60,167 nucleotides of DNA from contig JALVFK010000218.1 of assembly GCA_027030065.1 (NCBI GenBank), positions 1-60,167 of the forward strand. Reading direction: 5' to 3'. This document shows, in pieces, positions 50,051 through 53,428 of this stretch. The DNA is from Desulfurococcales archaeon. GTDB taxonomy: Archaea > Thermoproteota > Thermoprotei_A > Sulfolobales > WANQ01. The position numbers and the translations under genes were made by a program. Below the pieces are notes generated by a model that saw only the letters and a program-made list of their open reading frames with translations, was not told the origin of the DNA and ran no database searches. The first letter of the stretch is position 1, and every line of letters begins with the position of its first letter.

Positions 50051-50851
50051 TTGAGTTCTTTTATCAAGGAGGGAACTTTCTGGTGTAATGAAAAACCCTT
50101 ATCGCTAGCACTTCTAAATTTCGCGAAAATACGGGGTTTTTACCCTATATTGGGTATTGACGGGTTCCTTACATATAGTAGGAGAGAACTCTTAGAAGCT
50201 GATGCAAGACTCCCATATAACCTTATTCAAGGAAAAGGTGAAGTCGACATAGCTTTTTTCGATGAAAGAGTTTTAGCTATAGGTGCTGCCGCTACAACCA
50301 CATACGCATTCATAGAGTACATGAGGTTTCCTCCCAAGACCTTTGACCTTTATACGAGAATAGTCTTCGCAGATCCAGACAATGTTATAGACGCATACAA
50401 GGAGCTAACTGGTATCGGGCTGAGGTTACCAGCCCCTATTGTGGGAAAGATGTATAAAACTCTATTGCTTGTTAAATCTAATGCAAGGTTAAGAAGACTG
50501 TATCAAGAGGGTCGCAAAATAATTCTATTATCTATTGTGCCGTTTTATGCTCCAAAAAATGTTTTGAGATCCTTGCCTATTTACTTGAATAATTTAGTAA
50601 AATACATTGCAACACAACATGGAATACATGTCGATGATTTCAATATTTTTGTGATGTATCCCAACGAGTTAGGGGATAAGCCTCCAGACAAGATATACTT
50701 TAAGTGTATTACTCGCCTAAAGGAGTATGTATTGGGTGAAGAGATAATCATTGAAGATTTAATCAAAATTGTAGGTGAACTAAGAGGTTGTAGGGGTTGT
50801 CGATATATTGATATTTGTAGAAAGGCTTTCATGAAGCCCTCTAACATATAA
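50051..50851 (+). CDS. hypothetical protein
   Basis: 266 aa with TTG start. C-terminal CRGCRYIDIC. Confidence 0.45.
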   Translation: MSSFIKEGTFWCNEKPLSLALLNFAKIRGFYPILGIDGFLTYSRRELLEADARLPYNLIQGKGEVDIAFFDERVLAIGAAATTTYAFIEYMRFPPKTFDLYTRIVFADPDNVIDAYKELTGIGLRLPAPIVGKMYKTLLLVKSNARLRRLYQEGRKIILLSIVPFYAPKNVLRSLPIYLNNLVKYIATQHGIHVDDFNIFVMYPNELGDKPPDKIYFKCITRLKEYVLGEEIIIEDLIKIVGELRGCRGCRYIDICRKAFMKPSNI

Positions 50852-51784
50852 CATGAAAACTGGTAAACCAAGGATTATTGTTGTAAAGAAGGCTACTGCT
50901 CTAACAACAATCACTTGTTCGGGCGATAACACCATACTTAGACCGTATTCTGCTCCACCAGCCGCTCCTGGCGTAGGTATAGGACCCATAGCGTTGTAAA
51001 AGACTAATGCTTCTAGAGTTTGCTGTAGACTCACTTTACCAATACTGCGGGCTGCTAGTAGAAATGAGGAGAAAACTATTGTATATTTTGCTAGTGTAAC
51101 ACCGATTACCTTTATAGCAGTTCTCGTGTTAAGAGATGTAGATACGTGTTCCACCGAGCTAACCATTATGAGTAAAAGATCTAGAAACTTTCTTATAATA
51201 CCAATAGACTTATCTCTTAACCTTGAGAGAAAACCCCTTACGCTCTTTCTTCTTACCGCCAGAAATAGTATATTCCACGCAACTATATTATAAATTGAAG
51301 AAAGCAAAACAAATATAGTTATAGGAAGCCTCATTACTGCAAAGAATAATGCTGGAATATTTATGATAATTATGTCCCAGTAGTCTTCAAACAATGTAAC
51401 AGCTATGGCTCTCGACAACCTTATACCATATGATGCTAGTATTAGTGCCCTAACTGGCTCTCCTCCAACAGAGGAAGGTGTTGCTAAAGCAACTACGTTA
51501 CCCATTATCCTAGCCTTAAAAGCATCAACTATATTCATACGATATCCAACGTTCTTAAACAATATCTTTAGTCTTATAGCATCAATAACGTTAGAAAAAC
51601 CATACAATATCATTGATGCTAGCAATAGGATTGGGTCTACATGTAATAGAATATTAATATCTACATGCATAATTAACATATAAATAATCATAACAACTAC
51701 GACGACGAGGACGACGAGTAGAAGATCACGGTAGAACTTCTTGCTACGAAGAGTTTTAATAAAAACGCGTTCTAGGTCTTCCAA
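50780..51784 (-). CDS. flippase-like / LPG-synthase-TM (UPF0104) family membrane protein
   Basis: 334 aa, 8 TM. ATPSSVGGEPVRA and PTPGAAGGAEYG motifs, typical of the family. Confidence 0.65.
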   Translation of the reverse strand: MEDLERVFIKTLRSKKFYRDLLLVVLVVVVVMIIYMLIMHVDINILLHVDPILLLASMILYGFSNVIDAIRLKILFKNVGYRMNIVDAFKARIMGNVVALATPSSVGGEPVRALILASYGIRLSRAIAVTLFEDYWDIIIINIPALFFAVMRLPITIFVLLSSIYNIVAWNILFLAVRRKSVRGFLSRLRDKSIGIIRKFLDLLLIMVSSVEHVSTSLNTRTAIKVIGVTLAKYTIVFSSFLLAARSIGKVSLQQTLEALVFYNAMGPIPTPGAAGGAEYGLSMVLSPEQVIVVRAVAFFTTIILGLPVFMLYVRGLHESLSTNINISTTPTTS

Positions 51785-51789
51785 CTATA

Positions 51790-52897
51790 TTATCCTATTC
51801 TAAATCTTAGTATTCCGACTATTCCTCCAAATGTTTTCTTTATCCATTCTCCTTCGGGTATGTCATCACTTATGAAGTACACTTTTGCTCCATATTTCTT
51901 TGCTTCCTCTGCAAGCCTGTCTGCATCAATTCTATCCTCATCAATGATTAACGCCTTTAGGGCCCCCATTTTTAAAGCCTCTAATACCTCTCTTTCCCCA
52001 TATACAGCCAAACCATCATCTTTTGCTAAGTGATATTTGAATTCTTCAACTGCTTTCAACGCCTCCACATACATTTGCCCCTGTATTATATCATAGGCTT
52101 TCATTACAAGCTCTCGTAGACCCGCCTCACCTTGATACGATACATCAACTAATTGTGGCAGTATCTTCTGCTTCAATCTATATTCTAGGTAATCTCCTTT
52201 AACGAAGTCTTGTTTAGCATAACCAGGTCCGCCAACTATTATCCCCTTCAATATCCCCTTCTCCAGTAGCGGTAGGAAGTGTTTCTTAGCGTGCTCAGCT
52301 ACCCTCTTAAAGAACTCGTCAACTAGTTGCTCAATTATTCTATCATAACGTCTCTGACTCTGTCCTCCCTTATGATGTTTTCCTGGTACATATCCTTCTA
52401 ATTCCTCAAGCACCTTTAATCTAGTGCCCTGTAACAATCCTATGGTTGCAGCATCTCTTTCAATAATTAGTATACCAAAGGCTTCTCTCTCCTCAACCAT
52501 TTCTTCGAGGAATTCTATATGGAACCATTTATCAGTTCTATAGAAGAATACTGGAACTGGATCAGGTGGCGAGAATACATAACATATGAAATCTCTTGTC
52601 TGCATATCCTCTCCACAGAATACTACAAGGCCTGTGTCTGGTACTTTGGGTATTTTTGAGAGTCTATCCATAGCTGCGGTTAGTGCTCGTTGAACAGCAT
52701 CTTTAGTCCTCTTTAGCTTAATGTTATCAGTTATTGAGAGTTCTTGTCTCAATAAGTTCATAACATCGCTTATAGGTCTACCTGGAGGAATGTAGAGGCT
52801 TAACAATACTGTCGCTGGTGCTGTCCAGGTTTTAAGCTCCTTTAATATCTCCTTTAACTGCCTACGCGTTACCTTTAATCTCTCGCTAAATACTCAT
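51790..52897 (-). CDS. prf1: peptide chain release factor aRF1; full length requires a +1 frame change after codon 3
   Basis: GGQ motif ([11 protein letters not shown]), [19 protein letters not shown] (variant of NIKS). The long frame is open 51790-52893 but has no ATG/GTG/TTG before TTG 52806. ATG 52897 is one frame away and hits TAG at 52888-52886. Confidence 0.9.
52885..52891 (-). promoter_or_regulatory. candidate +1 recoding site AUU UAG C (or site of a T-run indel)
   Basis: Minus strand reads GAGGG ATG AGT ATT TAG CGA GAG. Skipping T 52888 gives [22 protein letters not shown]... Confidence 0.35.
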
Positions 52898-52931
52898 CCC
52901 TCAAACCCGGCTAGGTATGAAATAATACTTG

Positions 52932-52944
52932 CTTAAAAATTAAA
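52932..52944 (-). promoter_or_regulatory. TATA-like box upstream of prf1
   Basis: Minus strand TTTAATTTTTAAG lies 35-47 nt upstream of ATG 52897. Confidence 0.4.
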
Positions 52945-52993
52945 CTCTCCTAGAAGCAGAGCTTGCATACAAGTGTAGTGTTTTTGTCATCTA

Positions 52994-53428
52994 TTAGGGC
53001 TCGGATAGTAGTCTTAGAGAGAACACGTATTGAGTTGTAGTTGGTAGTTTTTGTCTAAGAATAGCTACTTGAGGCCTATATATTATTATTTGAGACTCGT
53101 TATTCCATTCGAGTTCAAGTATCTTTGAAACCACCATTGATTCGATCTTACCTTTTACAACTACTGCTCCCTCCCCATATTCAGGGCTTACTTCTAACAG
53201 TATTGGTAGGTAAAGTTCCTTCCATAAATGCCTCGGCGTAATTGATGCGAGTAACTCAAGCTCTCTACGCTTAAAATAATGTGTAGAGCCATCACGTAAA
53301 ACTATATGAGGAAAATCTTCTTGGAGTAGCTCTGCAAGACTACGCTTCTTATATGGTAAGTGAAGGTTCACTAAACGTAGCTCTTTTTGTAGATACTCCT
53401 CTAAGCGTGCTTCCTTTTCTGTCTTCAT
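52994..53428 (-). CDS. UPF0216/DUF61-family protein
   Basis: 144 aa. NLHLPYKKRSLAELLQEDFPHIVLRDGSTHYFKRRELELLA resembles the archaeal DUF61 signature (from memory). Confidence 0.55.
   Translation of the reverse strand: MKTEKEARLEEYLQKELRLVNLHLPYKKRSLAELLQEDFPHIVLRDGSTHYFKRRELELLASITPRHLWKELYLPILLEVSPEYGEGAVVVKGKIESMVVSKILELEWNNESQIIIYRPQVAILRQKLPTTTQYVFSLRLLSEP

Follow-up and report, generated by a model that had tools for sequence, protein, structure and literature searches.

The gene for the class-I release factor aRF1, a protein that decodes all three stop codons (PMC3521657), lies on the minus strand of a 60,167-nucleotide (nt) stretch of DNA from a Desulfurococcales archaeon (assembly GCA_027030065.1, contig JALVFK010000218.1; the whole stretch is called the window in the following). 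An ATG at 52897 opens a zero-frame open reading frame (ORF) of just three codons, and the remainder of the protein is encoded in the +1 frame. We propose that aRF1 is, with high probability, expressed here through a conserved programmed +1 ribosomal frameshift at an NUU_UAG site. This is a real, conserved recoding site and a variant of release-factor frameshifting in Archaea; its interpretation as a +1 ribosomal event is well supported by the comparison of orthologous sequences. For the clade of hyperthermophilic Crenarchaeota concerned (Desulfurococcus, Thermogladius, Staphylothermus-like lineages and the Pyrodictiaceae-related lineage of the window), we further lean towards the view that aRF1, the single omnipotent release factor, is autoregulated by a stop-triggered +1 shift 3-5 codons past the start, with a second Shine-Dalgarno (SD)-like block at initiation-like spacing assisting.

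Inspection of the locus agreed with what had been noted before from the letters alone (the sequence-only reading), namely a minus-strand string GAGGG ATG AGT ATT TAG C together with a long frame devoid of a start until TTG 52806. The zero-frame mini-ORF ATG AGT ATT TAG (Met-Ser-Ile-stop) occupies 52886..52897 on the minus strand, with ATG at 52897-52895, AGT at 52894-52892, ATT at 52891-52889 and TAG at 52888-52886. The long aRF1 frame is +1 relative to this ATG and is closed upstream by a TGA (52896-52894). As supported by alignment to PDB entries and by the TIGR03676 profile, it encodes aRF1 residues 4-368, ending in GILRFRIG, at 51790..52887 (minus strand; stop at 51792-51790). Its first ATG, GTG or TTG is the TTG at 52804..52806 (minus strand), which gene callers chose as the start of a 338-amino acid (aa) protein (P0002; ORF 51790..52806). 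This codon lies within the conserved LLSLYIPPG strand and is not credible as the aRF1 start. Deletion of one T in silico yields an aRF1 of 368 aa, which confirms the earlier expectation of a normal-length protein (about 369 aa).

Residues 3-367 of this repaired protein align with residues 6-370 of the structurally characterized Aeropyrum pernix aRF1 (PDB 3AGK/3VMF; E value 4e-155), and the region skipped by the annotation is homologous to residues 6-35 of the crystallised A. pernix factor. Against the NCBIfam model TIGR03676 (aRF-1), the repaired protein scored 454 bits, with a curated equivalog cut-off of 234.7; the match begins at profile position 3, compared to position 22 for the annotated 338-aa form. 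The complete N-terminal domain including its first helix is obtained only with the +1 shift. Together with the codon-position bias of substitutions described below, the alignment to A. pernix and the profile match also bear out the former statement that the in-frame codons upstream of the TTG are plainly coding. Both the GGQ motif (KGGQSQRR) and the NIK(S)-type motif (TDNIKLK) are present in the window's aRF1 and invariant in the homologue alignment; Pfam eRF1_1/2/3 domains are recorded for the homologues. In a protein search, the six closest clusters (81-100% identity) were all called short, with 338-351 aa, whereas most of those at ≤74% identity are full length.

The breadth of the arrangement was assessed in the window plus its 80 closest aRF1 loci, with one genome per GTDB species (81 sequences), to which two Desulfurococcus isolates were added separately. 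Cassettes were called by a position-anchored search with manual correction of L031 and L100 and removal of four spurious calls (L043, L082, L085 and L094), a procedure that replaced an automatic classifier which had taken unrelated zero-frame stops. The cassette consists of a start codon, 1-4 codons (mostly RGY), NTT, TAG or TGA, and then usually C. It is present in 44 of the 81 sequences and, with the two Desulfurococcus isolates, in 46 species-level lineages; an early stop with +1 continuation thus recurs among the orthologues well beyond what chance would give, which supports the recoding candidate first seen in the window. The commonest form, ATG GGT TTT TAG C, was found in Staphylothermus-like metagenome-assembled genomes (MAGs) and in many Desulfurococcaceae MAGs. 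In Thermogladius, two complete genomes (NZ_CP151274.1 and NZ_CP196893.1) have ATG GGC/GGT TTT TAG C, Desulfurococcus mucosus has ATG AGT CTT TAG C (L105, 1458-1470) and D. amylolyticus ATG AGC CTT TAG C (L107, 1464-1476). Three MAG species carry ATG RGT CTT TAG C, two species ATG AGT GTT TAG, and four species have slightly longer mini-ORFs, e.g. GTG AGT AGG ATT TAG C. In 29 of the 46 lineages there is no main-frame ATG, GTG or TTG anywhere upstream of the site.

In a neighbour-joining protein tree, the cassette is found in all 28 members of a large Desulfurococcaceae clade and in all eight of the window clade, and a third, mixed group holds both cassette and in-frame states. Ordinary in-frame aRF1 starts are seen in Pyrodictium, Hyperthermus, Pyrolobus, Aeropyrum and the Acidilobaceae. 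Two loci (L071 and L072) combine an in-frame ATG/GTG six codons upstream (MGCCVFSEE...) with a cassette-like TTG CGT/TAT ATT TAG that has GGGGTG in front; such loci may stand midway between the in-frame and the frameshift state. One MAG (JALTZF01, Pyrodictiaceae S141_metabat2_scaf2bin.116) contains two differing in-frame aRF1 loci (L044 and L053), so that either the bin is mixed or the gene is duplicated.

If the first base of the stop is taken as position 0, a T occupies each of -2, -1 and 0 in 46/46 lineages. The shift codon is free to vary in its first base (TTT in 25, ATT in 14, CTT in five and GTT in two lineages). The stop is TAG in 44 cases, TGA in two and TAA in none, and it always directly adjoins NTT. 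For comparison, among the stops of 55 long ORFs in the window 30 are TAA, and TAG-C accounts for three of the 55 contexts. The stop is followed by C in 36 lineages (T in seven, G in two, A in one), and the codon preceding the shift codon is RGY in 39. In the window, the candidate shift site A_UU_U_AG_C (52885..52891, minus strand) would pair the P-site tRNA with AUU and present UAG, followed by C (52885), in the A site; AGC (Ser) would be read after the slip. Beyond the TAG, the next zero-frame stop of the window clade comes eight codons on, at 52864-52862. In large-clade loci (e.g. L040, L058 and L089) the zero frame continues as CTA TAG TGA after the first TAG, i.e. with three stops within four codons, so readthrough of the first stop would terminate at once in that clade.

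Two G-rich blocks precede the shift codon. A GAGG(G/T) block occupies positions -14..-10, with G at -12 in 45/46 lineages; in the window it is the GAGGG at 52898..52902 (minus strand), which abuts the ATG. It stays 6-7 nt 5' of the shift codon regardless of mini-ORF length, and it holds its distance to the NTT codon also in four lineages whose start codon lies elsewhere (L081, L091, L100 and L101). The second block, usually GGTG, is located at -20..-17, about 7 nt 5' of the ATG; the window has CCGGG here (52906..52910, minus strand). In 45 long ORFs of the window, SD-like tetramers ahead of the first ATG are most frequent at a spacing of 5-9 nt, with none at 0-2 nt, and the in-frame relatives have a G-block 5-9 nt before the ATG, the block adjoining the ATG being mostly absent. 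Given this spacing, the upstream G-rich block is a plausible initiation signal and a candidate SD sequence. The GAGG block next to the ATG, on the other hand, looks like a putative part of the recoding signal, i.e. a candidate frameshift stimulator. RNA structure was rejected as a stimulator: minimum free energy (MFE) folds of the region -22..+70 and of the downstream 57 nt in eight diverse lineages revealed neither a shared hairpin nor an unusual MFE (z-scores -1.5 to +0.7).

The substitution pattern provides a further argument. Over the 30 codons from the shift to the LYIPP anchor, variable sites in the window clade are distributed 13/7/23 over the three codon positions of the +1 frame, and the summed column entropies for the same interval in the large clade are 23.4/15.2/49.0. 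By this measure, the +1 frame downstream of the site evolves as coding sequence. The junction itself is always TTT + AGY, or TTT + GAG where the stop is TGA. Elsewhere in these aRF1 genes only 37% of Phe codons are TTT and 56% of Ser codons are AGY, and the naive probability product for the TTT-AGY/GAG junction is 1e-33, a value that is uncorrected for phylogeny. As judged from these codon frequencies, the junction nucleotides are more constrained than the protein alone would require. The in-frame relatives mostly begin with Met-Ser (ATG AGT/AGC) or Met-Gly, just like the mini-ORF, which identifies the ATG of the latter as the ancestral aRF1 start. Some resemble the predicted shifted product closely (MSLSDKL in L074; MSGSIERKL in L063 versus the predicted MSI|EEKL of L030). 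Seen this way, a single base seems to have been inserted behind codon 3 and then kept.

The mechanism we envisage follows the logic of its closest analogue, bacterial prfB, the gene for RF2, which is controlled by an autoregulatory +1 programmed frameshift at CUU_UGA_C with an upstream SD sequence (PMC10798248). After initiation at ATG 52897 and synthesis of Met-Ser-Ile, peptidyl-tRNA(Ile) would occupy the P site, paired to AUU, while the A site presents UAG. Either aRF1 would read the UAG and release a useless tripeptide, or, as long as the A site stays empty, the P-site tRNA would slip +1 onto UUU; AGC would then be decoded and full-length aRF1 (MSI-SERLKV..., 368 aa) would result. Since the gene itself encodes the factor that decodes this stop, the site should act as a negative feedback, i.e. 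as a sensor of termination capacity following the RF2 logic. By analogy with prfB, autoregulation of aRF1 by the shift site is likely.

The resemblance to prfB extends to several features. Both are class-I release factor genes with a short zero-frame ORF closed by a stop that the product itself reads, in the archaeal case at codon 4. In both, the P-site N-UU codon would re-pair on UUU (NTT_T in every lineage), a C, which in prfB makes for a weak stop context, tends to follow the stop, a purine-rich SD-like element lies upstream, and conservation of the site over a large clade goes along with its loss in certain lineages. Even CUU_UAG_C is seen, in Desulfurococcus and in three MAG species. The differences are likewise clear. 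aRF1 is a member of the aRF1/eRF1/pelota fold family without homology to RF2, and can only be an analogue with respect to prfB regulation. The archaeal zero-frame ORF has three codons (up to five) instead of about 25, the shift codon is mostly UUU or AUU, and UAG, seldom UGA, serves as the stop, a choice open to a factor that decodes every stop codon.

Five observations weigh against our proposal or parts of it. First, the GAGG block is found at an initiation-like spacing of 6-7 nt from the shift codon, which is the usual SD-start spacing in this genome, and not at the 3 nt of prfB; for this reason the "compressed spring" model of prfB is not directly transferable and the block is no more than a candidate stimulator. 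Of the prfB-like architecture recognised in the sequence-only reading, the N-UU codon, the A-site stop, the following C and the upstream G-rich element proved to be conserved, whereas the distance of this element differs from that in prfB. Second, a second AT-rich stretch about 25 nt 5' of the ATG would permit a leaderless mRNA, in which case the SD-like block would not be transcribed. Third, re-pairing on UUU would be perfect for UUU and would involve a G:U wobble for CUU, as in prfB, but AUU and GUU each give one mismatch; AUU-to-UUU leaves a first-position U:U mismatch, so that slippage in the window clade would be weaker than in UUU or CUU lineages. The weakness of AUU relative to CUU had been pointed out before, and we agree; the window's AUU is a minority variant, UUU being the commonest codon and CUU also occurring. 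Fourth, the free base of NTT coincides with the synonymous third position of a +1-frame Val codon (GTN), so sequence variation alone does not pinpoint the codon at which the frame changes; NUU as the shift point is what we infer. Fifth, 17 of the 46 lineages have a possible in-frame GTG, TTG or ATG upstream of the site; these starts are not conserved and are mostly GTG inside the GGTG block.

It has to be asked if the shift, though real, might run constitutively and at very high efficiency, as a frozen peculiarity of the gene that senses no change in aRF1. Release after a tripeptide is perhaps intrinsically poor and UUU_U may be extremely slippery, which would lead to near-complete shifting at any aRF1 level. 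We nevertheless consider this rather unlikely. As with RF2 and the mimivirus factor (PMC10798248, PMC3521657), the site is specific to the very gene that encodes the reader of its stop. In 46 lineages, including all of the 28-species clade, this stop has been kept, although a one-base deletion would remove the need for shifting, and several neighbouring lineages manage with in-frame aRF1 genes.

Improbable, in our view, is a setting of the frame at or near initiation, either by a non-canonical start on a +1-frame GUN or GCU codon or by a shift straight after the AUG to give M-V-F-S... The variable base is the synonymous third position of the +1-frame Val codon (GTA/GTT/GTC/GTG), and GAGG lies 4-5 nt before that codon; three loci (L047, L073 and L081) have a real GTG at or near it, and the in-frame relatives L069, L071 and L072 read A/V/I-F-S-E. 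However, GUA, GUU, GUC, GCU, AUA and GGA are not near-cognate start codons, and such an event accounts for neither the stop right after NTT in 46/46 lineages, nor the avoidance of TAA, nor the use of TTT and never TTC. Codon 2 alternates between T and C in its last base (AGT/AGC, GGT/GGC), a change that is silent in the zero frame but would exchange Val and Ala in the +1 frame, and a start with Met-Ser or Met-Gly agrees with the in-frame relatives.

Still less probable is that part of the mRNA is put back in frame by transcriptional slippage or by some other loss of one U from the RNA. Frame correction by slippage is known in prokaryotes (PMC5009743), and the commonest cassette variant carries a five-T run (GGTTTTTAG). 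Yet the run is no longer than T3 (ATT T, CTT T or GTT T) in 21 lineages, the window among them, far below the known slippage-prone runs, and slippage needs neither an adjoining stop, nor a following C, nor an SD-like block at fixed distance. What remains best supported is a shift of the ribosome itself.

Hardly tenable is the notion that the upstream 27-36 codons are untranslated and that aRF1 starts at a downstream ATG, GTG or TTG as annotated (338-363 aa), even though gene callers and RefSeq do pick such starts (P0002, P0116, P0125 and P0127). The chosen starts are non-homologous among close relatives, lying 3, 13, 16, 20, 27 or 30 codons before the LYIPP anchor; nine lineages lack a downstream in-frame start altogether, and that of the window would fall inside a conserved beta-strand. 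The skipped region moreover shows third-position-biased substitution, aligns to structured residues of 3AGK and covers TIGR03676 positions 3-21.

Finally, 24 contigs of separate origin (NCBI MAGs, ENA and Logan assemblies) were compared. GGGATGAGTATTTAG is present in all 24. Within a species cluster of 96-100% identity, at least 15 contigs from differing samples and assemblers, many of them independent Illumina assemblies, have the identical cassette, which is also kept in an 87%-identity cluster (eight contigs) despite many synonymous changes around it. An 81%-identity lineage has ATG AGT ATT TGA G, i.e. a TAG to TGA change with retention of the +1 continuation. Complete genomes of cultured Thermogladius carry the cassette as well, and so do isolate genomes of Desulfurococcus (one a 1.3-Mb scaffold). 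The alternative of a one-base indel that the sequence-only reading had kept in mind, i.e. a sequencing or assembly error with one surplus T in the T3 run of a plain ATG AGT ATT AGC ORF, has a next to negligible probability and is, on these comparative data, excluded: the break does fall in a short homopolymer and the window holds two further small ORFs interrupted at homopolymers, but the surplus base is found in every independently assembled contig and in 46 lineages including isolate genomes, one sub-lineage mutated its stop without restoring the frame, and T3 is not an error-prone run in Illumina data.

Three further schemes were rejected: reassignment of TAG as a sense codon, since zero-frame readthrough departs from the conserved protein frame; a -2 shift, which is without pairing support at AGU_AUU; and termination-reinitiation, for which there is no start codon to reinitiate on.

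Within the protein family itself, the closest known cases are the eRF1-like genes R726 of Mimivirus and mg280 of Megavirus, whose +1 frameshift at CUU_UAG_C or CUU_UAA_C was read as prfB-like autoregulation; according to the same study, the homologues of eukaryotes and archaea lack any such mechanism (PMC3521657). The eRF1/aRF1 protein family and the required +1 frameshift are common to the viral and the archaeal genes. The viral genes, however, also need stop-codon readthrough and shift internally, whereas the archaeal case is cellular, chromosomal, situated at codon 4 and equipped with an SD-like element.

A slowly decoded A-site stop that triggers a +1 shift is also characteristic of antizyme (UCC_UGA_U), a polyamine sensor with a downstream pseudoknot, and of Euplotes (AAA_UAA/UAG), where shifting is genome-wide and tied to altered termination. 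The antizyme shift, too, is a regulatory sensor, but of polyamines and not of a release factor, and it makes use of a pseudoknot, whereas no RNA structure is detectable at the archaeal site.

Recoding events described for Archaea include the -1 frameshift in fucA1 of Saccharolobus solfataricus, Pyl and Sec redefinition, and frameshifts in Mg-chelatase and haloarchaeal virus tail genes (PMC8211752, PMC5009743); in none of these cases is aRF1 concerned, nor is there a +1 shift triggered by a stop, or autoregulation. aRF1 is not mentioned (0 occurrences) in the 2021 review on archaeal recoding (PMC8211752) or in the 2016 review on frameshifting (PMC5009743). We found no published account of an aRF1 frameshift in a cellular archaeon in the full-text literature, the coverage of which is incomplete, so that an earlier description is possible.

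Release-factor autoregulation by frameshifting has so far been seen as a bacterial invention, with giant viruses as the sole exception. The conserved archaeal case would mean that the same solution arose within cells in the unrelated aRF1/eRF1 family. If true, it would be the first cellular release-factor autoregulation by recoding outside Bacteria, convergent with prfB and the mimivirus factor, and a cellular archaeal +1 programmed frameshift with broad comparative support; gene callers and frameshift finders would have missed it on account of the short mini-ORF. The natural cassette of about 25 nt would also be a compact system in which frameshifting, the kinetics of termination and the function of SD sequences can be examined with archaeal ribosomes at high temperature.

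There are consequences for annotation as well. Public aRF1 entries for D. mucosus, D. amylolyticus and the Thermogladius loci L089 and L080 start internally (P0125, 361 aa; P0127, 363 aa; P0116, 356 aa). In these isolate genomes, the annotated GTG, ATG or TTG starts leave out the 5' cassette together with 12-19 N-terminal residues that are conserved. For many Desulfurococcales, the aRF1 N-termini in RefSeq, GenBank and MAG records are mis-annotated and 5-30 residues short; annotation pipelines should handle archaeal aRF1 as they do prfB.

An AT-rich, TATA-like box (TTTAATTTTTAAGC; 52931..52944, minus strand) is located 34-47 nt 5' of the ATG, in keeping with the distance of about 40 nt given earlier, and is the presumed promoter of an independently transcribed aRF1 gene. 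In the lineages of 87% and 81% identity, comparison of promoter regions showed TTTTTAAGC to be retained at equal distance. The window clade shares a conserved gene order (50780-53428; loci L001-L023) that comprises V-type ATPase B and D subunits, a DUF61 protein (52994-53428), aRF1 and then an LPG_synthase_TM membrane protein (50780-51784). The LPG_synthase_TM gene of Desulfurococcus lies instead upstream of aRF1 and is divergent, beside the gene for ribosomal protein L40e. Neither a tRNA gene (ARAGORN) nor an Rfam family at gathering threshold was detected in the 60-kb window (about 38% G+C); therefore, no nearby RNA gene accounts for the locus.

At about 920-1400 on the plus strand of the window there is a DUF2283-like small ORF (...VEFSIKYDSAGDVLYIKLRDDKIVESEEIEPGVIVDYNEKGEIIGIEYY) followed by a DUF4258-like ORF (MKIRYTLHALERLR / NRGIKRELVEHCLKSPGKDEEIN...), the family names being assigned by eye. 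Each of the two is broken in frame, near 945-948 (T4 run) and near 1199-1200 (G4 run), respectively. They may represent a decayed toxin-antitoxin-like pair, or the breaks may be errors.

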